Assembly: GCA_963749445.1 (NCBI GenBank)
Contig: CAVVMJ010000010.1
Coordinates: 117,738 to 181,737 of the forward strand
DNA: 64,000 nucleotides
Direction of reading: 5' to 3'
Origin: an uncultured bacterium
Lineage (GTDB): Bacteria > Patescibacteriota > Doudnabacteria > UBA920
Shown here: piece by piece, positions 8,297 to 63,853 of the stretch
Numbering within the stretch: the first letter of the stretch is position 1
Layout of the letters: each line of letters begins with the position of its first letter
Translations under genes and position numbers: made by a program
The notes under the pieces: generated by a model
The model's database searches: none
Told to the model about the DNA's origin: nothing
The model's input: the letters and a program-made list of their open reading frames with translations, nothing else

Positions 8297-8338
8297 CTTT
8301 CACATTATACCATTTTTTGCTATGATTTACCTATATAG

Positions 8339-8438
8339 TTGATGGGCATCTTCGCGGTACCACAATCGCTAACCGATGGTTATCGGATAGCGATAAATCC
8401 AGATCAAGAGGTTAAATAACCACGAAGAGGCCCATTAA
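8339..8438. mobile_element. MITE family 1 copy (TIR TTGATGGGCATCTTCG ... CGAAGAGGCCCATTAA)
   Basis: Terminal inverted repeat plus a shared internal core ccgatgg.tatcggata; about 100 bp; one of 5 copies. Confidence 0.75.
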
Positions 8439-8462
8439 GACAATTAAACCAGCGAAACAAAT

Positions 8463-8834
8463 ATGGCTGACAAATTGGAGCAGGAAGTAAGCGAATACGC
8501 CAAGCTGGCCAAAGAAAATTCCAATATTGACGTGGCCAGTCTGATGCTGCACGCCCTCAATGAAAAATCCAACAAAGTTTCCTCCAAAATGAAATGGTGG
8601 GTCTACATGTTATCGGTTGGCCTCCCGATGGTCGGTTTCTTATTTGCCGCGTATTATTACTTTTTTAGCGACAAAGATGACGCCCAGCAAGTCGCCAATA
8701 TTTGTATCTTTCTTTCCATCCTCTGCGTGGGCATATTTTGGATAACCGGAAAAATCATGTTGTCAGGAAGCGGCACCAGTTTGAACCAGATAGAACAAAT
8801 CACGCCGCAGGAAATACACGACACCATTCAGTAG
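8463..8834 (+). CDS. small membrane protein, hypothetical
   Basis: ORF with two hydrophobic helices; no recognisable family. Confidence 0.5.
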   Translation: MADKLEQEVSEYAKLAKENSNIDVASLMLHALNEKSNKVSSKMKWWVYMLSVGLPMVGFLFAAYYYFFSDKDDAQQVANICIFLSILCVGIFWITGKIMLSGSGTSLNQIEQITPQEIHDTIQ

Positions 8835-8950
8835 TAATCGCAAATATACAAATTCAAACAAATATACAAATCCGATGTCGGCTGAATTTCCTGTAAGCTA
8901 TAACTCATGGCTATTTGTATATTTGTGTTGATTTGTATATTTGAGAACAC
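8831..8950. repeat. MITE family 3 copy (GTAGTAATCGCAAATATACAAAT ... ATTTGTATATTTGAGAACACTAC)
   Basis: Palindromic AAATATACAAAT words. A second copy lies at 20319-20440 with the same ends. Confidence 0.7.
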
Positions 8951-8955
8951 TACCT

Positions 8956-10494
8956 ATGCCCAAAGAACTAACGATTGTCCACATCGCTTCCGAATGTTCG
9001 CCTTTTGCCAAAATCGGCGGACTGGGCGACGTAGTTTCCGCGCTGCCCAAGGCTCTGTCCGGTCTCGGACATAAGGTGGCGGTCATTTTGCCGCTGTACG
9101 AGGGCGTCAAAAAACAAAATTTGGTTTTGCGGGATATTTTGGAAACCGAAGTCAGCCTGCTCGGCAAAAATTTTTACGCCGGGCTCAAACAATGCGAAAC
9201 CGGCGATGGCGTCTCAATTTTTTTTGTTGATAACGAACAATTTTTCGGCAAACGGAACAATATTTACGGCTACGAGGATGATGGCTTGCGGTTTTTATTT
9301 TTTAATTTGGCCAGCCTCACCCTCTTGGATATGGCGCTCGGCCAAAAAATTCCGCCATTTGAACAAGGCAATATTGACATTCTGCACTGCCACGACTGGC
9401 ACGCCGGACTCATTCCCCAGCTGCTGCATTGCAATCACAGATTTGATCATATCACAGAAGTTGCCACCACGTTTACCATCCACAACCTGGCCTTTCAAGG
9501 CACGAACGACTGGTGGGCGGTACCGAAAAATAAACGGGATATGGGGCACGGCGACCCCACGGCCAAAGGCGTTAATCCCAAATACTTAAACTTTACCCGC
9601 CGCGCGATTTTGCACGCGGACGTGATTAATACGGTCAGCGAGCGCTACGCCGCCGAAATTCTCACGCCCAAATTCGGCCATGGGCTGGACAAGTTGCTAA
9701 AAGCCAGGAAAGACCGCGTGTTTGGCATCATTAACGGCGTGGATTACGCGGTATTTAACCCCCAGTTTGACCAATACATTTACGAAAAATTCGGCGCCGA
9801 TACCATTGAAAAAAAATTGGACAACAAGCTCAGGTTCCAAAAAGAAATCGGCTTGGAGGAAAATAAAACCATCCCGCTCATCGGCATGGTCAACCGGCTC
9901 ACCGAACAAAAAGGCTTTGAGCTGATGATGCAGCTTATGCCCAATTTGCTCCGCCTGCCTCTGCAGTTGGCCGTGGTCGGCAGCGGCGACCGGGGGTACT
10001 TAAAATTTTTCCGCGCGGCTTCCCGCCGGCACCCGGAAAAAATCGCGGTCTGCTCGCCTTTTACCGAGGAAATGGCCGCCAAAGTTTACGCGGCGTCCGA
10101 TATGTATTTAATGCCGTCGCGCTTTGAACCCTGCGGCATTTCACAATTGATATCTTTGCGCTACGGCAGTGTGCCCATTGTCCACGAAACCGGCGGCCTG
10201 CACGACACCATTTCCGATTTTGACTCGCGCTCCGGCCGCGGCAACGGCTTTGTGTTTTCTTCCTACACCGAAGAAGATTTTTTGATTGCCGTAGTCCGGG
10301 CTTTGGAAAATTACCACTACAAAGACGCCTGGCGCGCTTTGGCCAGTTCGGGCATGAAGGAATCTTTTTCCTGGGACCTGCCGGCCCAAAAATATTTGCA
10401 GTTGTACCAGCTGGCGATAAAGAAAAAGAAGACTGATGAAAAACCAAAAAATATCATCAAAAAAGTTTTTGATTTGGTCGCGGAACGGGTATGA
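8956..10494 (+). CDS. glgA: glycogen/starch synthase (GT5)
   Basis: MPKELTIVHIASECSPFAKIGGLGDV (K-x-GGL motif); ~513 aa; ends with a TGA stop. Confidence 0.9.
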   Translation: MPKELTIVHIASECSPFAKIGGLGDVVSALPKALSGLGHKVAVILPLYEGVKKQNLVLRDILETEVSLLGKNFYAGLKQCETGDGVSIFFVDNEQFFGKRNNIYGYEDDGLRFLFFNLASLTLLDMALGQKIPPFEQGNIDILHCHDWHAGLIPQLLHCNHRFDHITEVATTFTIHNLAFQGTNDWWAVPKNKRDMGHGDPTAKGVNPKYLNFTRRAILHADVINTVSERYAAEILTPKFGHGLDKLLKARKDRVFGIINGVDYAVFNPQFDQYIYEKFGADTIEKKLDNKLRFQKEIGLEENKTIPLIGMVNRLTEQKGFELMMQLMPNLLRLPLQLAVVGSGDRGYLKFFRAASRRHPEKIAVCSPFTEEMAAKVYAASDMYLMPSRFEPCGISQLISLRYGSVPIVHETGGLHDTISDFDSRSGRGNGFVFSSYTEEDFLIAVVRALENYHYKDAWRALASSGMKESFSWDLPAQKYLQLYQLAIKKKKTDEKPKNIIKKVFDLVAERV

Positions 10495-10497
10495 TAA

Positions 10498-10536
10498 TTT
10501 AAAAATTAAATAAAATTAACAAATTAAATAAAATTT
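10498..10536. repeat. left arm of a palindromic element enclosing the four-helix-bundle gene
   Basis: aaattaaataaaattaacaaatt is the inverted complement of 10903-10945 and identical to the left arm of the hairpin at 63775-63853. Confidence 0.7.
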
Positions 10537-10905
10537 ATGACCCCGGAGGAACTACAAAAGCGAACAAAACAGTTTGCAATTAGAATTATCAAACTTGTTC
10601 AGCAATTGGAGAAACAAGGTGCAGTCGGAATAGTCATCGGAAAACAATTGCTCCGTTCTGGAACATCAACTGCGGCTAATTATCGTGCGGTCTGCCGAGC
10701 GAAATCAGGGAAGGATTTCATCAATAAACTAGGAATTGTGGCTGAAGAAGCTGATGAAAGCCAATTTTGGCTGGAATTGTTAGTTGAAGCTGATGTAATT
10801 GAATTACTGATGGTAAAAGACCTCCTAAAAGAGGCTTCTGAAATTACTGCCATAATGACCGCTTCCAGATCTTCAGCAATAAAAAATCAAAAATCCAAAA
10901 AATAA
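10537..10905 (+). CDS. four-helix-bundle protein (23S rRNA intervening-sequence protein family)
   Basis: MTPEELQKRTKQFAIRIIKL...AANYRAV...LELLVEA..., typical of the TIGR02436/PF05635 family. Confidence 0.8.
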   Translation: MTPEELQKRTKQFAIRIIKLVQQLEKQGAVGIVIGKQLLRSGTSTAANYRAVCRAKSGKDFINKLGIVAEEADESQFWLELLVEADVIELLMVKDLLKEASEITAIMTASRSSAIKNQKSKK

Positions 10906-10945
10906 TTTTACTTAATTTTATTTAATTTGTAAATTTGTTAATTCT
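10903..10945. repeat. right arm of the same palindromic element
   Basis: taattttacttaattttatttaatttgtaaatttgttaatt. Confidence 0.7.
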
Positions 10946-10948
10946 TTT

Positions 10949-12364
10949 ATGTTCTGGGCCAACTTTCTCCACATCTACCAGCCGCCGACGCAAAAACCCT
11001 ACTGGGTCAAACGCGTGGCCGAAGAGTCCTACCGGAAAATTTTTGCCGGGCTTTTGGCCACGCCCAGCGCCAAAGTCACTATGAACATCAACGGCGTGCT
11101 TTTGGAGCTGCTGGATAAAAACGGCTGCGGAGACATTTTGGAAAGCATCAAAAAACTTTTGGACAAAAACCAGCTGGAACTGGTAGGCTCGGCCAAATAC
11201 CACGCCATGCTGCCGTTTTTGCCTGAACGCGAAATTGTCAGGCAAATCCAACTGAACGAACAAACTTTAAAAAACTATTTGGGATCATCGCTGTCATTAA
11301 AAGGGTTTTTCCCTCCGGAAATGGCTTTTGACCCCAAGCTGGTGCCGATTATTTCCTCCTTGGGCTACAAATGGATTATTTGCGATGAGCTGTCTTTCCC
11401 TGCGCCCGGACAAAAACCCCAGTACGACCGCATTTATACCGATGCGCAAAACCCTTCCGTGGCTTTATTTTTCCGCGAGCGGCACATGAGCTGGGTCATC
11501 CTTTCCGGCCAGGTCGGCACCGGCCAGCTTTTGGTTTCCAGCCTGGGCGATCGGCTTAAAAAAAACGAATTCCTGCTTACGGCCATGGACGGCGAAACTT
11601 TTGGCCACCACCGGCCGGGATTGGAACAGCTGTTGTTTGAAATTTTTAATGCCGATAAACTAAAAACGGTCCGGATGTCGGAACTGTTTGACTTATTTCC
11701 CACGCGCGAAGCCCTCACTCCGCGTCCCTCCACCTGGGCGTTAATGGAAAAAGATCTGGAAGAAAAAAAACCGTTCTCGCGCTGGCAGGATCCGGACAAT
11801 ATCATCCATCAATTGCAATGGCAGCTGACCGATTTGGCGATAAACACCGTGGAGCAGGCGGACGAGCGTGCGCCCGGATTTCCCGAGGCACGCCAAACTT
11901 TGGACAGGGCGCTGCATTCCGACCAGTATTGGTGGGCCTCGGCGCGGCCGTGGTGGAGTTTGGAAATGATCGAACTCGGCGCCAAGGAACTTTATGACGC
12001 GGTGCTGCTTACGCCGGGAATTTCCGACGAAACGCGCGAGCTGGCCAGGCATTTGTACCACACCATTGTGTTCACGGGTTTTGACTGGCAGCGCTCCGGA
12101 CTGGTGGACGAGCTCTCCCGCCGGGAAGACGAAGCCGTAAGGCAGCGCACGGACATCGGCATCCCCAAACTGCCCCGGGCCGAAGTGGAAAAAATGGTTA
12201 CCGGCCTGCAAAAAGAAATGGCGGCCGTGGCGGCCGCGCAGGAATACGAGCGCGCGGCGCAAATCCGCGACCGTATTAAGGAACTGCGCGGTTATGTTTC
12301 GGATGACGGCTCTGCATTAAAAACTTCCGATGAGGGCAATCGGGAGTTCAAGTTGAATCCTTAA
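10949..12364 (+). CDS. GH57-family glycoside hydrolase (amylase / branching-enzyme type) with C-terminal UVR-like motif
   Basis: N-terminal NFLHIYQPP (GH57 HxHQP signature). C-terminal AQEYERAAQIRDRIKELRG resembles a UvrB/C UVR helix. Confidence 0.75.
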   Translation: MFWANFLHIYQPPTQKPYWVKRVAEESYRKIFAGLLATPSAKVTMNINGVLLELLDKNGCGDILESIKKLLDKNQLELVGSAKYHAMLPFLPEREIVRQIQLNEQTLKNYLGSSLSLKGFFPPEMAFDPKLVPIISSLGYKWIICDELSFPAPGQKPQYDRIYTDAQNPSVALFFRERHMSWVILSGQVGTGQLLVSSLGDRLKKNEFLLTAMDGETFGHHRPGLEQLLFEIFNADKLKTVRMSELFDLFPTREALTPRPSTWALMEKDLEEKKPFSRWQDPDNIIHQLQWQLTDLAINTVEQADERAPGFPEARQTLDRALHSDQYWWASARPWWSLEMIELGAKELYDAVLLTPGISDETRELARHLYHTIVFTGFDWQRSGLVDELSRREDEAVRQRTDIGIPKLPRAEVEKMVTGLQKEMAAVAAAQEYERAAQIRDRIKELRGYVSDDGSALKTSDEGNREFKLNP

Positions 12365-12365
12365 A

Positions 12366-12404
12366 AAACAATTAACGATTAACAATTGACAATTAACATA
12401 AAAC
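12366..12404. repeat. left arm of a caattaacgattaac palindrome enclosing four-helix-bundle copy 2
   Basis: aacaattaacgattaacaattgacaattaac vs the reverse complement of 12781-12815, aacaattgacgattaacgattaacgattaac. Confidence 0.7.
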
Positions 12405-12408
12405 AAAA

Positions 12409-12801
12409 ATGAATACAAAAGACAAATATGGTTTCAGGTTTAGAGACTGACAAGTATACAAAGACGCAAGATCGTTCAGAAAAGAAATCAACTTACTTAT
12501 CAAAAAATTTCCAGCTGACGAAAGATATGCTTTAACCGACCAAACTAAACGGGCGTTAACTTCCATTATTTTAAATGTCGCGGAAAGCACAAACAAAAAC
12601 TCGGATAAAGATATGAGGGTTTACATTAACAGGAGCCACTGTTCACTTGACGAAGTCGTCGCCTGTCTTGATTGCGCTTATGATAATGGTTACATCAATG
12701 AGCCGGAACTGAATATTTCTTTAGCCAAAGCGTCCGGCTTAGCCAAACAACTCACAACCTTTACTGTATACCTGTCAAAGGACAAAAAAGTTAATCGTTA
12801 A
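12409..12801 (+). pseudogene. four-helix-bundle protein copy 2 with in-frame TGA after codon 13
   Basis: MNTKDKYGFRFRD*QVYKDARSFRKEINLLIKKFPADERYALTDQTKRALTSIILNVAES...YINEPELN: the full family signature is present but interrupted by TGA. Only the C-terminal 62 aa appear in the ORF track. Confidence 0.65.
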
Positions 12802-12815
12802 TCGTTAATCGTCAA
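12781..12815. repeat. right arm of the palindrome enclosing four-helix-bundle copy 2
   Basis: gttaatcgttaatcgttaatcgtcaattgtt. Confidence 0.7.
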
Positions 12816-14273
12816 TTGTTTATGAATGTGCTATTCGCCGCGGCCGAATGCGCGCCGCTGGCCAAAGTCGGAGGCTTGGGAGACGTCATTGGCTCTTTGC
12901 CCAAAGCCTTAAAACAAATTGGCGTTGACGCGCGGGTGATTTTGCCGAGGTATAAAAATATCCGGCTGCCTACGGAAAGTAAATACCAACCGATAAAAAT
13001 TCTGGTAACTTTTAACGACCAACCGATGTCAGTTACGGTCTACCAAACCACCTTGCTCGAAAGCAGCATTATTTTGTATCTGTTGGAAGAGCCGGCGATA
13101 TTCGGCAGCGGCACGGTTTACGAAACAACCGATGCCACGCCGGGTAGCGAAGAGGAAATAAAAAAATTCCTGTTTTTTTCCCAGTGCGTCGCGGAATTCC
13201 TAAAACAAAAAATCTGGCAGCCCGATGTCCTGCACGCGCACGATTGGCACCTTGCCCTCACTCCCCTTTTAATCAAATTGGCAAAACTCCCAATCCCGAC
13301 CTTGCTGACCATCCACAATCTGGCCATGCAGGGTTTGGCCTCGGCTGAAAGTCTGGAGGCTTTGGGCGGAAATTTAATCGGCCAGCCGTCCTTGCGCCAA
13401 GATTTGGCCAAATCCGGCAAAATTAACCTGCTGCGGCAAGGTATTTTGCACGCCGACGCGGTCAGCACGGTCAGCCCCACTTATGCCAAGGAAATTACCG
13501 CCGCGGAATTTGGCGAAGGTTTAGAAGCTGATTTAAACAAACTGGATAATATTTACGGCAATCTAAACGGCCTTGACGAGTCGGTTTGGAATCCGGCAAC
13601 TGACCGGCTTTTAGCCAAACCTTATGATAAATCTGCGCCGGAACTCAAACTGCAAAACAAATCAGCTCTGCAAAAATTACTTGGACTAAAATCCGCCGAT
13701 GATGTCCCGCTCATTGGGATCGTCTCCCGCCTGACCGGCCAAAAAGGTTTTGATTTGCTTGAACCCATAAGCAAAGCGCTGACAACTTTGGATTTCCAGA
13801 TGATAATTTTGGGCGTGGGCGAGCCCGCAATAGAAAACTTTTTTGCCGATCTTTGCCGCAAACATCCCCAACGGTTCACCTTGCAAAAAAAATTTGACGA
13901 GCGCCTGGCCCACCAAATTTACGCGGGCGCCGATATTTTCCTGATGCCCTCGCGTTTTGAACCCTGCGGCCTTGGCCAAATGATCGCCATGCGCTACGGC
14001 AGCCTGCCGCTGGTTCGCTCAACCGGCGGGCTAAAAGATACCGTAATTAATTTAGCGGATAATTTAAGCAACGCGGATTTCGCCACGGGGTTTGTGTTTG
14101 ACGATTATGATCCTTTGGCGCTTTTGGCGGAATTAAAACGCGCTCTTAATCTTTATCACCAGGACCAAAAAATCTGGGACCGGATGAGCCAAAACGCCAT
14201 GGCCAAAGATTTATCGTGGGCTAATTCAGCAAAAAAATACTCTGAACTCTATCAAAAAATTATTAATTCATAA
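12816..14273 (+). CDS. glycogen synthase paralog (GT5)
   Basis: MFMNVLFAAAECAPLAKVGGLGDVIGSLP; collinear with GlgA. Confidence 0.85.
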   Translation: MFMNVLFAAAECAPLAKVGGLGDVIGSLPKALKQIGVDARVILPRYKNIRLPTESKYQPIKILVTFNDQPMSVTVYQTTLLESSIILYLLEEPAIFGSGTVYETTDATPGSEEEIKKFLFFSQCVAEFLKQKIWQPDVLHAHDWHLALTPLLIKLAKLPIPTLLTIHNLAMQGLASAESLEALGGNLIGQPSLRQDLAKSGKINLLRQGILHADAVSTVSPTYAKEITAAEFGEGLEADLNKLDNIYGNLNGLDESVWNPATDRLLAKPYDKSAPELKLQNKSALQKLLGLKSADDVPLIGIVSRLTGQKGFDLLEPISKALTTLDFQMIILGVGEPAIENFFADLCRKHPQRFTLQKKFDERLAHQIYAGADIFLMPSRFEPCGLGQMIAMRYGSLPLVRSTGGLKDTVINLADNLSNADFATGFVFDDYDPLALLAELKRALNLYHQDQKIWDRMSQNAMAKDLSWANSAKKYSELYQKIINS

Positions 14274-14279
14274 CATGAG

Positions 14280-14378
14280 TTGATGGGCATCTTCGTGATT
14301 ATCCAATCCTCGACCATAATTAACCGCTACCCGATGGTAATCAATTAGTGCTTGTGGAACCACGAAGATGCCCATCAT
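14280..14378. mobile_element. MITE family 1 copy
   Basis: TTGATGGGCATCTTCG ... CGAAGATGCCCATCA. Confidence 0.8.
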
Positions 14379-14388
14379 TCAATTCTTA

Positions 14389-14651
14389 TGGACAACCTTG
14401 AACAGGAACTTTTAAAAATTCACGACAGAAACCGGCGCGTGGAGCTGGACAAAGCCTGGGAACGCAGCTGGACACGGCGGATAACAATCGCGATTATTAC
14501 CTACATAATCGCTTTGGTTTGGCTAATGCTGATAAAAGAGCCCTTCGCCGCCTGGAAAGCTTTTGTCCCGACCGTGGGATACATTCTATCCACCCTGTAT
14601 TTGCCGTTTGCCAAAACCGCCTGGCTTAAGCATCGCCCAAACCCAAAATAA
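14389..14651 (+). CDS. small membrane protein, hypothetical
   Basis: The ATG lies just outside the MITE. Two TM helices. The longer ORF-track N-terminus is MITE-derived. Confidence 0.5.
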
Positions 14652-14663
14652 TACCAATCCCCG

Positions 14664-14760
14664 CCACACCTTTTTTGCTCGCAAAGCAAAAAAGGTGTGG
14701 CTGTATTTTGTGCCCAAAATACAGTGATTCACTTTTTGACGGCCGTCAAAAAGTGAATCA
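14664..14760. terminator. two hairpin terminators between convergent genes
   Basis: ccacaccttttttgctcgcaaagcaaaaaaggtgtgg and gtgaatcactttttgacggccgtcaaaaagtgaatcac. Confidence 0.65.
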
Positions 14761-16497
14761 CTACTTCCTCGTCGGCGGAATATGCAAATAGTTCAAAATA
14801 AACTGCGCCATCTGGCCAAAGACCGGGCCGGCCGTGCTTTCGGCAAACTGCACGTCGCGCGGGTGATCAATGCGTATAATCATCACGAACCGCGGGTCTT
14901 CCACCGGCCCGTAGCCAATGAACGAACCGATGTTGTTGGTCGGGTCATACCCGGGTTTGCCGTCGGAGCGGGCCACCTGCGCCGTGCCGGTTTTGCCCGC
15001 GATAAAATAACCCGGAACCGCGGCCCGTTTGCCAAAACCGTTTTCCACCACGTCCACCAGCATGGCCGAAACGGTGTCGGCAGTTTTTTTGGTCACCGGC
15101 TGACCGACCACGGTCGGCTGGGTGTTAACGGTTCTGCCGTCCGGATAGACTTTGGCCTGCACAATATAAGGCTTCATCATTTTGCCGCTGTTGGCCAGCG
15201 CGCCGTAAGCCTCAAGCAATTGGAGCGGCGTAACCGAAATGCCCTGGCCGAAACTGGCCGTATCATAGTTGACGGCGATATTGCCTTTGGTAATCCCGCT
15301 CAAATCCCCCGAAACCTCGGGCAATTCCACTCCGGTTTTTTGGCCAAACCCGAACGCCTTAACGTATTTTAAAAAGTCCGGATTGCCCAGCTGGCTTTCG
15401 GCAAAAATCGCGCCGGTGTTTAGGGAAAAATCCAAAGCCTGCGCCATAGTCTGCGTGCCGCGCCCGCCCGGTTCGGCATTTTTGATGATATAGTTATCAA
15501 CCTCCACTTTGCCGGTATCGGTATAAGTCGTATCGGGGGTGATTTTGCCTTCATCAATGGCCGCGGCCATGGTGATGGCTTTAAAAGTGGATCCGGGCTC
15601 ATAGTTGCCCACGGTATTTTCATTGCTGAAGACTTTGGAATCGGTCACTTTGCCGTAATTGTTGGGGTCAAAATCCGGAAAACCGGCCATGGCTAAAACA
15701 GCCCCGGTTTTGGGATCCATCACAATAATGCTGCCGCTGTCCGCGCCGTGCTTGGTAACCGCGTCAGCCAAAATATTTTGGGCCTGGAACTGGATGTCCT
15801 TGTTCACGGTCAGCACCAAATTCACGCCGTCCACGGCCGGCTGTTCCTGGCGCATACTGCCGAAAATCCAGGCGCCCCCGGTGTCTTTCTCCTCGTAAAG
15901 CTGTCCGTTTGCGCCGGCCAGATCTTTGTCAAAATAACGCTCCAGGCCGTACAGCCCGACTTTCTGGTTTTGGTTGTTGTAGCCGACGAATCCCACCACG
16001 TGGCTTAATAAACTGTTTTGGGGATAATAGCGCGAATCCTCGGAATCCAAATAAATACCCGGCAGTTTCAACTGTTCGACGGCTTGCTGTTCCTGGTCGC
16101 TGAGCTGCTTTTTGAGCGGCGCGTATTTGCGGCTCTCGTCGGTAATTTTTGCCAAAATATCGGCGGCCGGCAAATTTAAGGCACCGGCCAAGACCTCGCT
16201 CGCGGCTTTGGGATTTAAAATATCCTGCGGCACGGCGTAAACCAAATACTGCTTAATGTTGGTGGCCACCGGAATGGTTTCCAAGGTCGCCTGGTCCGTC
16301 AAGTCAATTTCCCCGCGCGAGGCGAACAATTTTAAAAACACGCTGTGCTGCTGCTCGGCTTGCCCGCGCATATCGCCGCCGCGCAGCACCTGCAGCCAAA
16401 ACAGCCGGGCGGCAATGACCACCAGCCCCAATAATAAAACAACCGTCAATACGGCGGTTCGTTTTTGAAATATGTCTTTGTGGGAAGCTGAGACCAT
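14761..16497 (-). CDS. ftsI: penicillin-binding protein 2 / FtsI-type transpeptidase
   Basis: N-terminal TM helix. STFK, SLN and KTGTAQ transpeptidase motifs. Confidence 0.85.
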   Translation of the reverse strand: MVSASHKDIFQKRTAVLTVVLLLGLVVIAARLFWLQVLRGGDMRGQAEQQHSVFLKLFASRGEIDLTDQATLETIPVATNIKQYLVYAVPQDILNPKAASEVLAGALNLPAADILAKITDESRKYAPLKKQLSDQEQQAVEQLKLPGIYLDSEDSRYYPQNSLLSHVVGFVGYNNQNQKVGLYGLERYFDKDLAGANGQLYEEKDTGGAWIFGSMRQEQPAVDGVNLVLTVNKDIQFQAQNILADAVTKHGADSGSIIVMDPKTGAVLAMAGFPDFDPNNYGKVTDSKVFSNENTVGNYEPGSTFKAITMAAAIDEGKITPDTTYTDTGKVEVDNYIIKNAEPGGRGTQTMAQALDFSLNTGAIFAESQLGNPDFLKYVKAFGFGQKTGVELPEVSGDLSGITKGNIAVNYDTASFGQGISVTPLQLLEAYGALANSGKMMKPYIVQAKVYPDGRTVNTQPTVVGQPVTKKTADTVSAMLVDVVENGFGKRAAVPGYFIAGKTGTAQVARSDGKPGYDPTNNIGSFIGYGPVEDPRFVMIIRIDHPRDVQFAESTAGPVFGQMAQFILNYLHIPPTRK

Positions 16498-20316: not shown

Positions 20317-20318
20317 AG

Positions 20319-20440
20319 TAGTAATCCCAAATATACAAATCAACACAAATAAACAAATAACTATCAATCCTTGTGTTTAGCAAAACAGGCGACTGTTACC
20401 GGATTTGTATATTTGTCTAAATTTGTATATTTGCGAACAC
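20319..20440. repeat. MITE family 3 copy
   Basis: gtagtaatcccaaatatacaaat ... atttgtatatttgcgaacactactgtagta. Confidence 0.7.
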
Positions 20441-20859
20441 TACTGTAGTAAATTTAAGTTCAAATCCGAATCCAACCCGCGACTCATTTCGCCGTCCAAT
20501 TTAATCAAAAAAATCTCGCAGGTGGCCGAAATTACCGCTTTGAACACGTGGCCGCCGAGCATACTTAAATCACGGCGGCTAAAGCTGCCGTGGACGTGCA
20601 GTGCCGGCTTGCCCGCCGATAGGGCGATATTGCCAATGAGCGAAACAATCTCCAACTGCTCGGTAATAACTTGCTTGGTATATGATTTCGCGGCGAAATC
20701 GTAAACCCCAATCTCCAGCTCGCCGCAAGCGCCAATGGCCGTAAACGAGGCCGCGTCAATATCATACTGTCTGGCGAATTCCAAAAAGCCGGCGAAGACT
20801 TCTTCACCTTTGTCTATACGGATGATATATCTCTGGTTATCCTTTAAAATTACTTTCAT
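20440..20859 (-). CDS. PPC/DUF296-domain protein (PD1-like DNA-binding fold)
   Basis: 139 aa; EIVSLIGNIA...PALHVHGSFS.. core typical of PF03479. Confidence 0.6.
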   Translation of the reverse strand: MKVILKDNQRYIIRIDKGEEVFAGFLEFARQYDIDAASFTAIGACGELEIGVYDFAAKSYTKQVITEQLEIVSLIGNIALSAGKPALHVHGSFSRRDLSMLGGHVFKAVISATCEIFLIKLDGEMSRGLDSDLNLNLLQ

Positions 20860-20929: not shown

Positions 20930-20936
20930 TTAGTAT

Positions 20937-21634
20937 GGCTCTAGACTAGAAGATTTGTTCTGTTGTAGTCTAAAGATGTGATTAAATGGTCAAAACTGAC
21001 AAAATTTCAATGGGTCAAAGTAAAACACGGTTTTTGTGATGATTTAACTGCGACCCAAACAGCTAAACTTACAGGAATTAATCGCAACACAGTTAACAAG
21101 TACTACAAACTTTTTAGGGAGAAAATCGCCAAACATCAGGAGTCGGTCAGCAATGGGTTCAGCGGCCAGGTAGAGCTGGATAAAAGTTACTTCGGTGGCA
21201 GGAATAAAGGCAGGCGGGGCAGGGGTACAGAGAAGATTCCGGTCTTTGGCATTAAAAGGCGTAACGGTAGAGTCTACACCCAAATTATTAAGAATGCCAG
21301 TAGCGCCGAAATCAGGCCAATTATCAGGGAGTTTGTGAGGAGAGGCAGTATTGTGTATACCGATGGTTGGCGGGCTTACGACGGATTGGTTCTGGATGGC
21401 TACAAACATTTTCGGATTAATCATCGAATTTTTCAGTACTCCGACCGTAAAGGGGCCCACGTTAACGGCATCGAAAACTTTTGGAGCTTTTCCAAACGGC
21501 GGTTGGCAAAGTTTAACGGCATTAATCCTAAAAATTTTTACCTACACCTAAAGGAATGCGAATGGCGCTACAATGAGAAGCCCGATTTGTACAAAAAACT
21601 ATCATTAATTCTTAAAATCTTCTAGGCAAGAGCC
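20937..21634 (+). mobile_element. IS1595-family (IS1016-like) insertion sequence, 698 bp, 20-bp TIRs, 7-bp TSD TTAGTAT
   Basis: Left TIR ggctctagactagaagattt. Right TIR (reverse complement) ggctcttgcctagaagattt. TTAGTAT at 20930-20936 and 21635-21641. Confidence 0.8.
20978..21625 (+). CDS. IS1016-type (IS1595 family) transposase
   Basis: ...LDKSYFGGRNKGRRGRGTEKIPVFGIKRRNGRVYT...VYTDGWRAYDGL...INHRIFQY...HVNGIENFWS... is collinear with IS1016 transposases. GTG start. Confidence 0.85.
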   Translation: MIKWSKLTKFQWVKVKHGFCDDLTATQTAKLTGINRNTVNKYYKLFREKIAKHQESVSNGFSGQVELDKSYFGGRNKGRRGRGTEKIPVFGIKRRNGRVYTQIIKNASSAEIRPIIREFVRRGSIVYTDGWRAYDGLVLDGYKHFRINHRIFQYSDRKGAHVNGIENFWSFSKRRLAKFNGINPKNFYLHLKECEWRYNEKPDLYKKLSLILKIF

Positions 21635-21651
21635 TTAGTATTTAGTAGAGA

Positions 21652-24322: not shown

Positions 24323-25834
24323 TCATAGCTCTTTGACGCGCCCAAAACCCACCGAGTCGCGGAAGGCTTTGCCGGCGGCCATCATTTGCGCCCGCAAAAC
24401 GGTAAATTCCCCGTATTTGTCGTTAATGTCATCCAGCGCTGCCACCAAAGCGCGCTGCCGCTCAATATCGCCGAATAAAGACATCTGATGAATATACGGG
24501 CGCAGGCCGGCCACGGTTACGCCGATCAATTTTATCCCTGCGACATTTATCGGATATATCCCCGTAGGGGCGGGTTTCAAACCCGCCCCTACGCCGGGCT
24601 TAATCATTTTTAGGCATTCCAGGAAAATCTCCCGCCCGTCCTGCAAAAAATATCTCAACTTTTTGCTGTCGCCGAAACCCTGATAATCTTTGTCGTGATA
24701 ATAACAGCTGATGACATTCCCCATTAACTGTTTCTTGCGCAACCGCCGGCCCACCATTTCGCAAAGCTTGTACAGCACGGGCACAAAAAATTCCGGTTTG
24801 CGGAATTCCTGCGGCAAGGTGTACATATGTCCCATGGATTTGATTTCTTGTTCCTGATGAACCTCGGCTTTCCAAGTGCCTTCCAGTTGGCCGAGATTAT
24901 ATAAATGATGACCCGCGACCCGACCAAAACGCGCCACCAAGTGGCTGCGAGGGAAATCCCGCAAGTCTTTTAAGGTTTTGATCCCCAGCTCGTTTAAATT
25001 CCGCTCCTGCCGCCGCCCGATGCCCGGGACGTCGGTAAGTTTAAGCTGATGATACAAATCACCCTTAGATAAAACAAGGCAATCGGCGCTGTAGGGGCGG
25101 ATATCATCCGCCCTTTGTCGTGGGAGGATAATATCCTCCCCTACGCAACCATTGTGAATCACCGTCAACCCATCCGGTTTTTTTAAATCCGACGCAATCT
25201 TGGCCAAAGCCTTATTATCGGCAATCCCAACGCTGCACCTGAGCCAATCCCCAACTTCGGTTTTAAACCGCCGCTTTATTTCCCGCGCAATGTTTGCCGC
25301 CTCTTCAAAGGGATCAATCGAAAATTGTCCCATCCCGACCAACGAGTGCATCCGACCCGTTCGGTTCAACTCAGGGTCGCCCTGAGCGTAGCCGAATGGG
25401 CGAGGAGTGGAGGGATCTGTCTGATATAATAGATCCCTCGGCTCATCCTCAGGTGCATTCGGATTCGCTCGGGATGGCGAAAAAAAATTCCTAACATTGC
25501 ACACCCTCGTCAAATCCAAAAAACACTCGTCAATGCTGTACTTTTCCACCTTGTCCGTATAATCGCCCACGACTTTTAAAAACCTCCTGGTGTAAAACCG
25601 GTATCGTTCGGCGTGAGTTTGGGTCAAAATAATCTTAGGATATAACTTTTTGGCTTCCCACACCGGCGTGCCGGTTTTGATGCCCCATTTTTTGGCCTCC
25701 ACAGACGCCGCGATAATAATGCCGCCCAAATGCTCGCACACGCCCACGGGCTTTCCGCGCCAACTCAAATTATCCTGCTGCTCCACAGAGGCAAAATACG
25801 AGTTCATATCCAGATGCATTATTATGGACTGCAT
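24323..25834 (-). CDS. dinB: DNA polymerase IV (Y-family) carrying three in-frame palindromic insertions
   Basis: MHLDMNSYFASVE...SIDECFLDLT...CSVGIADNKALAKIAS...; 503 aa against the usual ~360. The extra segments coincide with the repeats at 24563-24591, 25091-25144 and 25330-25500. Confidence 0.8.
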   Translation of the reverse strand: MQSIIMHLDMNSYFASVEQQDNLSWRGKPVGVCEHLGGIIIAASVEAKKWGIKTGTPVWEAKKLYPKIILTQTHAERYRFYTRRFLKVVGDYTDKVEKYSIDECFLDLTRVCNVRNFFSPSRANPNAPEDEPRDLLYQTDPSTPRPFGYAQGDPELNRTGRMHSLVGMGQFSIDPFEEAANIAREIKRRFKTEVGDWLRCSVGIADNKALAKIASDLKKPDGLTVIHNGCVGEDIILPRQRADDIRPYSADCLVLSKGDLYHQLKLTDVPGIGRRQERNLNELGIKTLKDLRDFPRSHLVARFGRVAGHHLYNLGQLEGTWKAEVHQEQEIKSMGHMYTLPQEFRKPEFFVPVLYKLCEMVGRRLRKKQLMGNVISCYYHDKDYQGFGDSKKLRYFLQDGREIFLECLKMIKPGVGAGLKPAPTGIYPINVAGIKLIGVTVAGLRPYIHQMSLFGDIERQRALVAALDDINDKYGEFTVLRAQMMAAGKAFRDSVGFGRVKEL

Positions 25835-25837
25835 AAC

Positions 25838-25893
25838 AATTTACGATTAACGATTAACAGTACCAAAGGTTAATTGTCAATTGTTAATCGTTA
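25838..25893. repeat. caattgttaatcgttaa-word hairpin (gene-less form of the element around four-helix-bundle copy 2)
   Basis: acgattaacgattaacag taccaaagg ttaattgtcaattgttaatcgt. Confidence 0.7.
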
Positions 25894-26008
25894 AAAGTTA
25901 TTCGTATTCTAATAGTATACGATTGTTCACCTTTTATCAACCCTAAGTTATCCACACTCCTTTGCCAAGGCTTCAGAGTGCAAGCAAATAAAAAACGCGC
26001 GCCGTGGA

Positions 26009-27452: not shown

Positions 27453-27474
27453 CTTGGATTGATGTTGATGGGCA

Positions 27475-27563
27475 CCTTCGAGGGGTAGTTTAGTTAGCGA
27501 TGATGGATGCGCTGAACCGCAAACATCCGATAACTTTTATAGCCGCCCGAAGGTGCCCATCAA
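27475..27563. mobile_element. MITE family 1 copy
   Basis: TTGATGGGCACCTTCG ... CGAAGGTGCCCATCAA. Confidence 0.8.
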
Positions 27564-31216: not shown

Positions 31217-31239
31217 CTGAAATTTTTTTGTATAACGTA

Positions 31240-31336
31240 GAAATTGCGAGGAGCCAGGGCTTTATCTGGCGACGAAGCAATCCCGATATTTTTTGGGATT
31301 GCCGCGCCCCTCGCTGCATCGGGGCTCGCAATTTCC
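31240..31336. mobile_element. MITE family 2 copy
   Basis: gaaattgcgaggagccagggctttatctggcgacgaagcaatcccgata...ggctcgcaatttcc. Confidence 0.8.
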
Positions 31337-31344
31337 ACTAATTT

Positions 31345-33225
31345 TCAAACTGATTTTCTAATATCTATAATCCGCAGTTTCGCCTGCTCGTATCCATTCC
31401 ATCCGTCGCGGATGAGTTCCGCCGCAACGTCTACATTATCGCCCACTTTTAAAGTTTTGGCAAAATCGCCGCAGTTGAACATTATGGCCGGTATGATGAG
31501 CCTTGTCATTCCTGAAATCGCGAGTGCAGCCGAAGCGATCCAGTTCTTTAGCAGGATTGCTTCGCCCTCGGCTGCACTCGGGCTCGCAATTTCATCGTTT
31601 GAGCTTAACTGCATCTGCAAGTGCTGCTGGCTAGTTCCAACCAGCCGGACGGAATTGATTTTTAAATTGCGGATGAGAAACTTGGGTTTGGGGTTGCCCA
31701 CGCCGAGGGGCTCTAATTGCTGCAACAATTGACAATTAACAATTGACAATTGACTGCCATCCAGTTCTGCTTCCAATAATAACTGATGATGTAAATCAGT
31801 TTCAGAAAGGCTTGCCTCCGCGTACTCCAAAATCTTTTTATAAAATTCCTCGTATTCCGCGGTTTTCAAAGTCAGTCCCGCGGCCTGCTGGTGCCCGCCG
31901 AATTTTACAAGATGTTCGGAAGCAAATTTTAATGCCTCAATAATATTAAATTCCCCAACCGTGCGCGCCGAGCCGGTAGATTCCGTTTCCCCTCTATCTA
32001 AAATAATCGTCGGCTTGTAAAATTCTTCCGCAATGCGACCCGCCACCAAACCGACCACGCCTTTGGGCCAATCCCGCCCTAGCAGAATCAAAACTTTGCG
32101 GTCTTGGTATTTTACCGCCTGCTCGCGCGCTTCACTTAGCAACTGCCCGGTCAAATCCTGCCGGCGGCGGTTAATTTGCTCCAAGGCCAAGGCTTTTTGC
32201 TGGGCGGCCAACGCATCGGTTTCCATTAAAAGATGTAGGGCGACATTGGCGTGCTCCAACCGGCCCGCGGCATTCAGCCGCGGCGCAATGATAAAGCCAA
32301 GTGTATAAGTATCCATCGGTTTCCAGAAGGCGCCCTCTTGCAGACCGGCTGATATCATCAGCGCTTTCAAACCAACCCACCGCGTCTTAGCCAAAACCTT
32401 GAGCCCGTATTTTACCAAAATCCGGTTTTCGCCGAGCAGACTGTGGCAGTCCGCCACCGTGCCGATGGCGACAAGGTCTAACAGCCATTTTTCCCATCCT
32501 TGAATAACGGATGATCCGCGTGTAAATCCGCGTAGCCGATCCGCGTGTAAATCCGCGGCGCGCAGCAACCCACAGGCCAATTTAAACGCCACGCCCACCC
32601 CAGTTAAGTCGTGATACAGATATTTGTCGCCTGAATTTTTTGGATTTATCAGCGCGTAGGCTTTCGGCAGTTCGCCGATGATTTCATGGTGATCGGTAAT
32701 GATTAAATCGATATTGTTCGCGCGACAAAAATTAGCGGCGTCAACCGAGTTTGTGCCGCAGTCAACGGTAATGATTATCCTTGATCCTCCATCCTTAATC
32801 TTTGACAATGCGTCAACGTTGACCCCATAACCTTCGGCAAACCTGTCGGGGATGTAACTTTCAACCTCAACGCCCAAATAACGAAACGTTTGCTGCAACA
32901 CGGCATTGGCCGTAACCGCATCCGCGTCGTAGTCGCCATAAATACAAATTCGCTGATGTTTATCAATCGCTTCCCAAATCCTGTCCACCGCCTTTTGCAT
33001 ATCCCCAAACAAAAACGGGCCATGCAAATTTTCATACTTGGGATATAAAAATTCCTCAATCTGATTTTTCTCGGTTAATCCTCGATTAAACAACAATTGA
33101 GACAACAATCGCAAATCCCCTTCCCCTCTGGGGGAAGGTGGCCGGAGGCCAGATGAGGGTTCTCTGTGAATATTTGTCTGATTTTCGCCAAAATCTCTTC
33201 CGTCACCTGCGATTTTAGTTTCCAA
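31345..33225 (-). CDS. recJ: single-stranded-DNA exonuclease RecJ (DHH/DHHA1), with in-frame MITE family 2 copy near the C-terminus and a disturbed N-terminus
   Basis: DHH motifs (ITVDCG...ITDHHE). Residues DEIASPSAAEGEAILLKNWIASAALAISGMTR are encoded by repeat 31498-31596. A GC-rich repeat at 33110-33170 separates an upstream MPKNWKLKSQVTEEILAKI segment in another frame. Confidence 0.75.
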   Translation of the reverse strand: METKIAGDGRDFGENQTNIHREPSSGLRPPSPRGEGDLRLLSQLLFNRGLTEKNQIEEFLYPKYENLHGPFLFGDMQKAVDRIWEAIDKHQRICIYGDYDADAVTANAVLQQTFRYLGVEVESYIPDRFAEGYGVNVDALSKIKDGGSRIIITVDCGTNSVDAANFCRANNIDLIITDHHEIIGELPKAYALINPKNSGDKYLYHDLTGVGVAFKLACGLLRAADLHADRLRGFTRGSSVIQGWEKWLLDLVAIGTVADCHSLLGENRILVKYGLKVLAKTRWVGLKALMISAGLQEGAFWKPMDTYTLGFIIAPRLNAAGRLEHANVALHLLMETDALAAQQKALALEQINRRRQDLTGQLLSEAREQAVKYQDRKVLILLGRDWPKGVVGLVAGRIAEEFYKPTIILDRGETESTGSARTVGEFNIIEALKFASEHLVKFGGHQQAAGLTLKTAEYEEFYKKILEYAEASLSETDLHHQLLLEAELDGSQLSIVNCQLLQQLEPLGVGNPKPKFLIRNLKINSVRLVGTSQQHLQMQLSSNDEIASPSAAEGEAILLKNWIASAALAISGMTRLIIPAIMFNCGDFAKTLKVGDNVDVAAELIRDGWNGYEQAKLRIIDIRKSV

Positions 33226-33269
33226 TTTTTAGGCATATCAATTATTGTATCATTATCTTAAATACAATT

Positions 33270-33297
33270 GTAGGGGCGGGTCTAGACCCGCCCCTAC
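33270..33297. repeat. short perfect palindrome gtaggggcgggtctagacccgcccctac
   Basis: Same family as 24563-24591 and 25091-25144 (inside dinB) and 53803-53831. Confidence 0.75.
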
Positions 33298-33318
33298 AAA
33301 GCAATCCTTGATATATAA

Positions 33319-36900: not shown

Positions 36901-36957
36901 ATGTTTTATTTCAACGCCTCAATGCCCGAAAGTTTCCGGCCGGCCTGACCCAATTTG

Positions 36958-36990
36958 GACAAATACTATCATACTACTGTGCATGATAGT
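36958..36990. repeat. hairpin-containing direct repeat A (ggacaaatactatcatactactgtgcatgatagt)
   Basis: Identical (one mismatch) to 37519-37552. Contains the palindrome ACTATCAT..ATGATAGT. Confidence 0.75.
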
Positions 36991-37534
36991 TTTTATCCAT
37001 TTTTAAAAGTCGGGTTAATTCTTTACTTAACTTAGTCTTCTCCTTCATCTGCTCAAGCGCCATGGTCAATTTTCGGCGTTGCTTGGCATTCGCGTTCCTG
37101 ATAATTTCATCCAACACCAATTCTGGCCAGTAATACATAGGATATCTCTTTTTGACTTTACTCCAAGATAAAGCACCATCATCAGATTTAGCCGGCTTTT
37201 CTTTTATTCTCCCGGCGATAACTCGATACCCTTCTCCGTACAAATTAAGCCAGGTGTGGACTCTCGCTATGGTGGTGTTACTGACTTTCATTTCCCTTTG
37301 GATGTCCTGATAGGTGCAATCCTCCAAAAGCAAACGGGCAATTTGCAGCCTCCGCGCAAGCATCACCACTTCGCCCTCCGACAACAAATCCTTTATAAAA
37401 TTTGCCGCCTCAACGGGATTCTTAATGGCCGCTAAGGCTTTTGCAAAACCAATAAACAATTCCTGCTGCTGTTCCTTTGTTAAATGTTTCTTTGCATCGT
37501 ATTTGCCCATAAAATTTTGGACAAATACTATCAT
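36974..37534 (-). CDS. TrpR/YerC-YecD-family DNA-binding protein with C-terminal extension
   Basis: ...EQQQELFIGFAKALAAIKNPVEAANFIKDLLSEGEVVMLARRLQIARLLLEDCTYQDIQREMKVSNTTIARV... matches the Trp-repressor-like fold family. The start and stop codons lie inside the two repeat copies. Confidence 0.65.
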   Translation of the reverse strand: MIVFVQNFMGKYDAKKHLTKEQQQELFIGFAKALAAIKNPVEAANFIKDLLSEGEVVMLARRLQIARLLLEDCTYQDIQREMKVSNTTIARVHTWLNLYGEGYRVIAGRIKEKPAKSDDGALSWSKVKKRYPMYYWPELVLDEIIRNANAKQRRKLTMALEQMKEKTKLSKELTRLLKMDKNYHAQ

Positions 37535-37552
37535 ACTACTGTGTATGATAGT
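37519..37552. repeat. hairpin-containing direct repeat A' (ggacaaatactatcatactactgtgtatgatagt)
   Basis: Direct copy of 36958-36990. Confidence 0.75.
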
Positions 37553-37576
37553 ATTTAACCACTTTTTGCCATTACT

Positions 37577-38801: not shown

Positions 38802-38810
38802 AAAAAATTA

Positions 38811-38896
38811 TGAATTTGCGAGGAGCCAGGGCTTTAACTGGCGACGAAGCAATCTCATTAAATATTGGGATTACTTAGGCTGCACTCGCAATTTCA
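38811..38896. mobile_element. MITE family 2 copy
   Basis: gaatttgcgaggagccagggctttaactggcgacgaagcaatctcat...ctgcactcgcaatttc. Confidence 0.8.
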
Positions 38897-39206: not shown

Positions 39207-39245
39207 TCGGGATTGCTCCGTCGGCTGCACTCCTCGCAATTTCAG
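39207..39245. mobile_element. partial MITE family 2 copy (3' half)
   Basis: gggattgctccgtcggctgcactcctcgcaatttcagg. Confidence 0.6.
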
Positions 39246-40410: not shown

Positions 40411-40416
40411 ATACAT

Positions 40417-63755: not shown

Positions 63756-63774
63756 AATAGATTGAACAAAATTT

Positions 63775-63853
63775 TTAAATTAAATAAAATTAACAAATTG
63801 GCTGCAAAAAATTTTATTTAATTTTACTTAATTTGTAAATTTTATTTAATTCC
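63775..63853. repeat. aaattaaataaaattaacaaatt palindrome (rpsH-rpsZ spacer), gene-less form of the element around four-helix-bundle gene 10537..10905
   Basis: aaattaaataaaattaacaaatt ggctgcaaaaaatt ttatttaattttacttaatttgtaaatttt; both arms match 10498-10536 and 10903-10945. Confidence 0.7.

Follow-up and report, generated by a model that had tools for sequence, protein, structure and literature searches.

Four-helix-bundle genes between inverted tandem-repeat arms in a glycogen operon of an uncultured member of the Patescibacteria: candidate IVS-type cassettes outside rRNA

The intervening sequence (IVS) of the 23S rRNA of Coxiella burnetii contains an open reading frame (ORF) of the PF05635 family ('S23p') and is closed by a 28-bp stem of terminal inverted repeats. 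Two to three tandem GACAGAT heptamers lie just upstream of this ORF and RNase III cleaves within the stem; the S23p protein, according to the authors, is probably not produced (PMC4990558). ORF-carrying 23S IVSs also occur in Leptospira and Brucella (as cited in PMC4990558). Here, we describe two units of this kind in the glgA-GH57-glgA operon of an uncultured bacterium of the Doudnabacteria (assembly GCA_963749445.1, contig CAVVMJ010000010.1, positions 117,738 to 181,737; this stretch of 64,000 nt is hereafter called the window). Each unit has a four-helix-bundle (FHB) protein gene, that is, a gene of the PF05635/TIGR02436 family, between inverted arrays of short tandem repeats. We consider it probable that each of them is an IVS-type selfish cassette residing outside rRNA.

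Short repeats and FHB genes have also been reported in other settings. In Xanthomonas, arrays of the heptamer GGGAATC are highly enriched; most lie between genes of the same orientation, and most are transcribed. X. campestris (Xcc) has 186 of them, 70 of which form inverted pairs, and the heptameric repeat of Nostoc is GGGGAYT (Rehm et al. 2015, PMC4692102). That study treats heptamer repeats as G-quadruplex formers and draws no link to PF05635 genes. In bacteria of the candidate phyla radiation (CPR), 23S_rRNA_IVP ORFs are found in insertions of both 16S and 23S rRNA genes, and LAGLIDADG, GIY-YIG and 23S_rRNA_IVP cargo is located at the tops or bases of stem-loops (PMC11270868). FHB genes have moreover been described between the cas-operon genes cmr3 and cmr2 (PMC3936711). 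IVS-type FHB genes in rRNA are already known, and what is new here is the presence of probable IVS-type cassettes outside rRNA. In the searched literature, subscription-only works being outside reach, we found no report linking PF05635 genes outside rRNA to flanking repeat hairpins.

Structure of the two cassettes

A first-pass annotation of the window had placed the two FHB genes between glgA, a GH57 gene and a second glgA, in the loops of palindromic elements, and Pfam searches confirmed these neighbours. The closest relatives of the window GH57 among species-representative genomes are metagenome-assembled genomes of Patescibacteria, with an identity of at most 67%. The glgA1/GH57 and GH57/glgA2 spacers measure 454 and 457 nt, respectively, and in each of them the inverted arms and the ORF fill the whole space between the stop codon of the preceding gene and the start codon of the gene that follows (Table 1). 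Both cassettes are co-oriented with the operon. The 5' arm of cassette 1 spans the interval from the glgA1 stop codon to the ATG of the first FHB gene (FHB1), and the arms that had been proposed to bracket this gene were recovered within a few bases of the proposed positions. Tandem Repeats Finder detected periods of 10 and 18 in the cassette 1 arm and a period-7 array (12367-12398) in the 5' arm of cassette 2. The final codons of the second gene, FHB2 (V-N-R-stop), are encoded by the heptamers of the 3' arm, and a C-terminal KVNR is conserved among its homologues.

The arms of cassette 1 (10496-10535 and 10903-10948) show a complementarity of 96% over 23-24 nt, and those of cassette 2 (12361-12397 and 12790-12826) one of 84% over 37 nt. 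For cassette 1, the energy of the arm-arm duplex is -18.2 kcal/mol, as against -9.2 +/- 2.5 in dinucleotide shuffles (z=-3.6), a value equalled by 3 of the 500 shuffles; for cassette 2, it is -28.9 as against -11.6 +/- 2.8 (z=-6.3), and none of 500 shuffles was as good. The arms of both cassettes pair better than shuffled controls, and the minimum free energy (MFE) folds of both whole regions close a long-range stem with the ORF in the loop, as had been anticipated. The z-scores of these whole-region folds are modest (-1.4 for cassette 1 and -1.9 for cassette 2) because the coding interior dominates the fold energy.

Gene-less counterparts of both arm families, also announced by the first-pass annotation, lie at the positions given there or a few bases away. 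Filled arms and gene-less hairpins have exact stretches of 17-26 nt in common, and an alignment revealed repeat units common to the 3' arm of cassette 1 and the right arm of hairpin 63761-63850. In different drawings of its stem, the loop of this hairpin measures 12-24 nt, and its fold has a z-score of -2.5 to -3.1. It had been assigned to 'the ribosomal operon'; it does lie in a ribosomal-protein operon (L15-S5-L18-L6-S8-S14), but not in an rRNA operon. Hairpin 25833-25905 is inverted relative to cassette 2, which is on the + strand, and folds with z=-3.9 to -5.6. When up to two mismatches are allowed, AATTAAATAAAATTAAC occurs 7 times in the window (0.11 expected) and TTAACGATTAACAATTG 5 times (0.02 expected). 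A one-armed heptamer array of the FHB2 family (31725-31754; ACAATTG, 4.3 copies) was also noted inside ORF 31345-33225 (- strand), apparently in frame.

Both FHB proteins score above the curated cutoffs of the family models that had been named for checking. FHB1 matches PF05635 with E=1.8e-14 (54.2 bits, cutoff 33.8) and TIGR02436 with E=1.1e-22 (80.3 bits, cutoff 24). FHB2, with its internal TGA codon read as X or masked, gave E=6.2e-24 (84.7 bits) and E=9.9e-21 (74.0 bits), respectively. No mutual similarity between FHB1 and FHB2 was detected by BLASTP. The family motif is GxxRxxxSxxxNxxE (PMC3936711). In FHB1 (GKQLLRSGTSTAANYRA), G, R, S and N are in register and A replaces E, and in FHB2 (DQTKRALTSIILNVAE), R, S, N and E are in register and D replaces G. 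AlphaFold models FHB1 as a four-helix bundle (helices 3-27, 29-52, 58-84 and 90-121) with a predicted local distance difference test (pLDDT) score of 95.5. A Foldseek search with this model gave 2RLD as the top match (template modelling score, TM, 0.83-0.90; root mean square deviation 1.4), followed by 2GSC and by Avd, a protein of diversity-generating retroelements (DGRs). Profile searches led to the same structures: the FHB1 subfamily hit 2RLD (E=4.5e-25) and the FHB2 subfamily hit 2GSC (E=1.5e-9). The Protein Data Bank entries related to both subfamilies contain five chains each.

The first-pass annotation had also pointed to an in-frame TGA in the second copy as a sign of turnover, and this TGA was found at 12448-12450. 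The corresponding residue is W in 11/11 close homologues, and TGA is the stop codon of 8 of the 40 long ORFs of the window, which argues that FHB2 is a nonsense mutant and is not recoded. FHB2 is thus a fresh TGG-to-TGA mutant, and copy 2 is decaying.

Table 1. Positions of the operon genes, cassette parts and gene-less hairpins in the window
Feature	Position	Strand	Description
glgA1	8941-10494		Pfam
5' arm, cassette 1	10495..10536	+	imperfect tandem units AAATTAAAT / AAAATTAAC, period ~9-10; inverted-repeat pairs
FHB1	10537..10905	+	intact four-helix-bundle gene, 122 aa, PF05635 / TIGR02436
3' arm, cassette 1	10903..10948	+	FHB1 stop codon to GH57 start codon (10949)
GH57	10949-12364		Pfam
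5' arm, cassette 2	12361..12404	+	heptamers (G/A)ATT(A/G)AC, ~4.6 copies; begins at GH57 stop codon
FHB2	12409..12801	+	130 codons; inactivated by TGG-to-TGA at codon 14, 12448-12450
3' arm, cassette 2	12790..12826	+	GTTAATC, ~4.4 copies; overlaps FHB2 end, reaches probable glgA2 ATG 12822
glgA2	12816/12822-14273		Pfam; probable ATG 12822
gene-less hairpin, arm family 1	63761..63850		spacer rpsN (S14) / rpsH (S8)
gene-less hairpin, arm family 2	25833..25905		between GNAT gene and dinB-like gene, both - strand

When the cassettes are compared with IVSs of the Coxiella and Leptospira type, the likeness proposed in the first-pass annotation holds feature by feature. A PF05635-family ORF occupies the loop in both window cassettes, terminal inverted repeats form a stem around it (predicted to be 24-37 bp in the window, and ~28 bp in Coxiella), tandem repeats of variable copy number precede it (period 7 in cassette 2, 10/18 in cassette 1) and the ORF is decayed in some copies. 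However, the host site is a spacer between protein-coding genes in the window and helix 45 of the 23S rRNA in Coxiella; the neighbours of the window cassettes are glgA, GH57 and glgA, and neither cassette is inserted in a 23S helix (helix 9, 25 or 45). The arms of the window cassettes are AT-rich and differ between the two cassettes. Moreover, FHB1 is under purifying selection whereas the Coxiella protein is probably not made, and RNase III cleavage has been shown for Coxiella whereas for the window cassettes it is proposed by analogy. The CPR rRNA insertions come from the same phylum-level group, and the window also has a GIY-YIG gene with a filled and an empty form (see later in the text), but these insertions interrupt rRNA genes whereas the window cassettes lie between protein-coding genes.

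With the heptamer repeats of Xanthomonas and Nostoc, the cassettes have in common the intergenic 7-nt arrays of variable copy number, often arranged as convergent pairs able to form stem-loops, and an FHB gene of Xanthomonas sits inside such a GGGAATC pair. However, the window units are AT-rich and the period of cassette 1 is ~9-10 nt. Repetitive extragenic palindromes (REPs), their hairpin-forming pairs (REPINs) and the REP-associated tyrosine transposases (RAYTs) offer another parallel: inverted copies of a short palindromic repeat flank a single gene, and the repeat is found by itself as well, scattered through intergenic DNA of the same genome (PMC3116915, PMC3733652). They differ in that the RAYT is a Y1 (HUH) transposase whereas the FHB protein is a non-enzymatic-looking helical bundle, for which PF05635 and TIGR02436 are the sole Pfam/NCBIfam matches. 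In addition, a REP is one palindrome of 20-40 nt headed by GTAG or CGTC, whereas the arms of FHB genes are tandem arrays. Avd (PDB 4DWL, 8UB7), a pentamer working within an RNA-protein complex, has the same fold: in Foldseek, most Avd chains match the FHB1 model with a probability of 0.94-1.00, and the highest TM is 0.69 (query-normalised) or 0.77 (target-normalised). However, no reverse transcriptase, template or variable repeat stands beside the window FHB genes, and the Avd equivalog model NF033474 gave only 19.2 bits (cutoff 80). Other known systems were considered and rejected: a DGR, since the same three components are lacking; a retron, for want of a reverse transcriptase and of msr/msd; an integron cassette, since attC is present on one side only; and TIGR-Tas arrays, whose unit structure differs.

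Insertion, inheritance and distribution

We compared 80 GH57 loci of relatives, in which a junction was taken as the distance between tblastn alignment ends. Junctions of glgA-GH57-glgA of ~0-36 nt without an FHB gene were found in L003, L005, L009, L015, L057, L059 and L066, and in L080 the syntenic junction is up to 56 nt. The flanking genes of the window have a GC content of 0.49-0.54 (0.55-0.65 at third codon positions, GC3), as against 0.38-0.39 (GC3 0.32-0.40) for the cassette genes, with 0.39 (GC3 0.32) for FHB1 and 0.38 (GC3 0.40) for FHB2. Each whole unit, arms and gene together, is an insertion that fills an operon spacer. A hidden Markov model of the FHB1-homologue subfamily found no member in the 80 GH57 loci, and a jackhmmer search seeded from an ORF of L067 revealed four more FHB genes in them, with heptamer arms of other kinds. 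Three of these lie in spacers of the glg operon, between glgA and a GH57 paralogue in L036 and between a GH57 paralogue and GH57 in L048 and L067; the FHB gene of L035 is elsewhere in its locus. The cassettes of L036, L048 and L067, which are Patescibacteria of three other species, are independent, belong to other subfamilies and have different heptamer arms. The first-pass annotation had suggested that the elements may be mobile; the comparison of relatives supports insertion and spread, transposition itself being unobserved.

Thousands of FHB1 homologues were found at E<=0.001, with an identity up to 88% among the matches listed, and six of them were examined with their flanks. P0011, which is 84% identical to FHB1, is located in L081, where its neighbours are a hypothetical and a TraG-like gene; P0012, P0010 and P0025 lie between rsmI and yebC (L091, L181 and L182), and P0032 between smpB and a PLD gene (L184). 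The FHB1-type proteins of these five loci are 69-86% identical. Arms of the AATTAAATAAAATT family were present at every FHB1-type cassette examined, in at least four unrelated contexts. AAATTAAATAAAATTTATGA, a 20-nt sequence ending in the start codon, is invariant in the window, L081 and L091 despite diverged coding sequences. All six arm pairs of FHB1 type (6/6) could be drawn paired, five with z <= -2.7 and that of L091 with only -1.2. Both arms have CACAAATT units in L182 and TTGACCA/TGGTCAA in L184; since the units are altered on both arms, complementarity has been kept through two-sided changes. Similarly, an FHB2-type gene (80% identical) in the ftsE/ftsX spacer of L179 is accompanied by the same GATTAAC/GTTAATC heptamers as in the window. 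These observations indicate that the gene and its cognate arms are inherited together, at unrelated sites in other Patescibacteria genomes. A scan of viral contigs gave a single weak locus with 50% identity, and hence no sign of FHB1-type cassettes in phages.

Among homologous FHB1 cassettes, the proportion of nonsynonymous differences (pN) is 0.09-0.26 and that of synonymous differences (pS) 0.61-0.85, and dN/dS of FHB1 is 0.07-0.13 where computable. These values show that the FHB1 protein is functional and that the cassette lineages are old; on this evidence, the protein is under purifying selection. The 5' arm of cassette 1 is identical to the L181 arm at 40/41 positions, whereas 61% of synonymous sites in the ORF next to it are different. 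The arm is thus conserved well past what neutral change would leave, and it is constrained in sequence as well as in its ability to pair.

To see how far this arrangement extends, we considered 80 metagenomic loci with FHB relatives of 50-60% identity, 72 of them non-redundant, on contigs with a GC content of 0.35-0.63. Tandem repeats lie within 100 nt of 35/72 FHB genes, compared with 1/76 control ORFs on the same contigs, and the period of the flanking arrays is 7 in 37/43. Significant cognate inverted flanks were detected in 36-44% of the loci, depending on whether non-cognate or shuffled thresholds are used. The upstream neighbour is co-directional in 52/61. Elsewhere in the FHB loci, 6 arrays of the same unit were counted; 20 permutations gave 2.2 on average and never more than 5, and we regard this enrichment as weak. 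The upstream arrays are typically GATTnnn and the downstream arrays nnnAATC. We rejected this 5'-GATTnnn / nnnAATC-3' polarity as a mark of gene orientation relative to the hairpin, because a perfect inverted repeat reads identically on both strands. Either arrangement is found, the opposite one in X. campestris and in some hairpins of the window.

In X. campestris (L191, 1425-1875), an FHB gene ~86% identical to the crystallised Xcc0516 splits accB and accC. It is placed within inverted heptamers of the GGGAATC type, whose duplex reaches -52.2 kcal/mol (z=-5.8), and those on the 5' side seem to code for the N-terminus of a longer protein, which has the length found in the PDB and would begin at a GTG codon.

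Mode of action and competing explanations

A canonical terminator is located at 14663-14701, 3' of the cluster. The arm hairpins are not terminator-like, as an intrinsic-terminator scan (GC-rich stem plus T run) reported none of them, and the number of promoter-like sites in 8300-14800 (8) does not exceed the expected 8.2. Taken together, this points to read-through: a cassette would have no promoter of its own and would be transcribed within the operon message. Searches with Rfam at gathering thresholds returned only a tRNA, and no rRNA, in the whole window, and no group I or group II intron, riboswitch or known small RNA overlapping the arms. In the transcript, the arms may pair into a stem of 24-37 bp that would present the ORF as a ~390-nt loop. 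Such stem lengths are compatible with an RNase III substrate. RNase III would then cut the stem, as in the IVSs of Coxiella and Leptospira, and cutting would spare the host transcript: the flanking messages would be set free and the FHB gene would obtain a message of its own. The FHB protein, of whose relatives only the pentameric Avd is understood in function, most likely binds structured nucleic acid, for which its own repeat arms are the obvious candidate. Gene-less hairpins could be decayed cassettes that have undergone internal deletions, recombination partners or targets, or both. The loop at 63794-63817 and the FHB1 ORF both have CAAAAAA at their end, a likeness that is no more than suggestive of such a deletion. 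Leaving the RNase III step aside, our results support the interpretation of the first-pass annotation, which had likened the elements to IVSs.

Several points weigh against a selfish cassette of IVS type. The stem of cassette 1 is AT-rich and weak (-18 kcal/mol), and co-transcription, a stem spanning ~400 nt in a translated message and cleavage by RNase III are steps that we infer. Mismatches between arms are G.U in 25 cases, A.C in 32 and other in 88; as there is no bias for G.U over A.C, selection on a stem in the sense RNA is not demonstrated and a role at the DNA level is equally open. Slippage, gene conversion or cruciform/hairpin DNA could also maintain complementarity. No target-site duplication or direct repeat was found outside the arms in the window, L081, L091 and L179, and the FHB protein has no known motif of a recombinase or nuclease. 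Homologous cassettes are saturated at synonymous sites, and vertical inheritance of the rsmI/yebC cassette extends over three genomes; cassette movement is therefore rare, and the low GC content may reflect the composition of the cassette itself and not a recent transfer. Finally, at least six other hairpin families of the window have no FHB gene within 64 kb, and only ~40-50% of the distant FHB loci have clear arms within 70-100 nt.

The main rival explanation is a REP/RAYT-like process at the DNA level, in which the FHB protein recognises its cognate arrays, either in double-stranded form or as DNA hairpins, and maintains or spreads them; the flanked gene would be the 'master' copy and the gene-less hairpins its non-autonomous progeny. 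The layout is that of a REPtron, a single gene between inverted repeats that are also dispersed without it, and each protein subfamily retains its own arm family across genomes. The near-identity of the cassette 1 and L181 arms next to diverged synonymous sites implies a sequence-specific constraint, which this explanation accommodates along with the absence of wobble bias in arm mismatches. The X. campestris gene, set in an inverted GGGAATC pair in an organism with so many paired arrays (PMC4692102), and the weak excess of same-unit arrays in FHB loci point the same way. However, the protein is a plain four-helix bundle without known catalytic motif, its characterised relative Avd is non-catalytic, and most hairpin families of the window lack an FHB gene in the 64 kb. 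We regard this explanation as unlikely, although it deserves to be taken seriously. Mobilisation of the arms by a transposase acting in trans (e.g. of IS1595 type) would make FHB a passenger and the gene-less hairpins miniature inverted-repeat transposable elements. The units are indeed bracketed by inverted repeats and exist in short gene-less versions, and a transposase gene with its own 26-nt inverted repeats is present in the window (20978-21625). Nevertheless, the arms are tandem repeats of variable number and not fixed termini, the unit itself contains no transposase, target-site duplications were not seen and neither arm family is related to the IS1595 ends (TAGTATGGCTCTAGAC...). Moreover, although the arm families are unrelated to each other, the design recurs in different phyla, and its sole constant is PF05635. 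This makes a transposase-driven origin very improbable indeed.

A less exotic possibility is that the hairpins are native operon punctuation, serving as mRNA stabilisers, processing sites or translational regulators, and that the FHB genes are ordinary host genes in long spacers. Tandem-repeat hairpins do occupy many co-directional housekeeping spacers, including 5-6 consecutive ribosomal-protein spacers, and their 3' arms abut the next start codon. However, FHB genes are missing from syntenic loci, deviate in GC content and have arms in common with homologues in unrelated contexts; hairpins and FHB genes are patchily distributed, and long-range inverted pairs are ~10 times rarer in the DNA of relatives (7 in 1 Mb) than in the window (5 in 64 kb). 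We therefore hold this explanation to be very improbable. As for chance complementarity, AT-rich repetitive spacers of low complexity raise the background of short matches, and non-cognate arm pairs also score above shuffles. Against this, the dinucleotide shuffles refute it, the motif counts given above far exceed expectation and the arms are conserved in other genomes, so that chance is almost certainly not the explanation. An IVS-type selfish cassette outside rRNA is the reading that we retain as the probable one.

As judged from the sequences, the IVS protein family, rRNA IVSs and intergenic heptamer hairpins show one common anatomy, an FHB gene flanked by inverted tandem-repeat arms plus gene-less hairpins of these arms at other places in the genome, and this anatomy is found from Patescibacteria to Xanthomonas, inside ordinary operons. 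A tentative and rather doubtful idea goes further: PF05635 proteins may be dedicated trans-acting partners of hairpins made of short tandem repeats, mostly heptamers, each subfamily recognising its own unit, and the hairpin-embedded gene may be the autonomous form of a gene-less hairpin family that resides in operon spacers and, in some lineages, in rRNA helices as IVSs. If true, one mechanism would account for the function of IVS proteins, the origin of rRNA IVSs and the over-representation of heptamers in Xanthomonas, Nostoc and CPR. Apart from that of Avd in DGRs, no function has been assigned to the very large PF05635/TIGR02436 family, rRNA IVSs have been an unexplained curiosity since ~1990 and the over-representation of intergenic heptamers is likewise unexplained. 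The accB-FHB-accC locus of X. campestris makes the question testable in a tractable organism. For genome annotation, it matters that cassettes interrupt operons which are conserved (glg, accBC, ftsEX, cmr) and that arms can encode the termini of ORFs.

Other repeat-bracketed elements in the window

Tandem-repeat hairpins of at least seven families lie between co-directional housekeeping genes of the window, and the genome stands out by its wealth of such structures. In the ribosomal-protein operon (61024-63850, - strand), each spacer from L15 to S14 (L15-S5-L18-L6-S8-S14) measures 70-100 nt and has its own tandem-repeat hairpin, with units that include TAGTNNN/NNNACTA, GAATTAGT/TCTAATTC and TTAGCGT/GCTAAAT and with a 3' arm that abuts the next start codon.

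Small low-GC genes between inverted repeats comprise two DUF559 genes, a GIY-YIG gene, a helix-turn-helix (HTH) gene and an IS1595 transposase gene, and alongside them the FHB cassettes behave like the homing-endonuclease-type cargo of CPR rRNA insertions. The GIY-YIG nuclease gene (38894-39190, - strand, GC 0.33) is flanked by arms at 38801-38825 and 39230-39254. Its arm GAAATTGCGAGGAGCCAGGGCTT recurs, with 22/23 identical positions, as the outer stem of a gene-less structured element of ~100 nt at 31236-31335 (fold z=-5.1 and -6.5). The two elements form a third filled/empty pair, with a different cargo. The first-pass annotation had proposed searching for further arm pairs with and without an ORF, coincidence being its alternative for the two FHB cases; more such pairs do exist. 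The DUF559 (Vsr-like endonuclease) genes are located at 43711-44064 (GC 0.36) and 48515-48868, both on the - strand, and G/C-rich inverted repeats bracket each of them (regions 43644-44252 and 48449-48931); the first pair has 67-nt arms and a duplex of -90 kcal/mol (z=-8.8). The gene for a Trp-repressor-like HTH protein (36974-37534, - strand) has 44-nt repeats at 36956-36999 and 37518-37561, each of which is palindromic. The IS1595-family transposase gene (20978-21625) belongs to an element spanning 20931-21640 with 26-nt terminal inverted repeats.

Other repeats were also noted in the window. Hairpins 8831-8953 and 20317-20444 have ~41-nt arms of one family (CAAATATACAAAT units) that are 83-85% complementary, with loops of 41 and 44 nt whose sequences are unrelated; in this family, the arms are thus conserved and the loop content is not. 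Three intergenic copies of another element (14281-14377, 27465-27563 and 40311-40412) have inverted ends of 15-20 nt, TGATGGGCAYCTTCG ... CGAAGRTGCCCATCA, and interiors of 57-68 nt. Palindromes of the type GTAGGGGCGG...CCGCCCCTAC occur at 24563-24593, 25091-25144, 33268-33299 and 53803-53831. Two of them lie inside the dinB-like ORF 24323-25834 (503 aa), whose Pfam IMS domain takes up 209 residues instead of 148, which points to in-frame insertions of palindromes, reminiscent of the Rickettsia palindromic elements.

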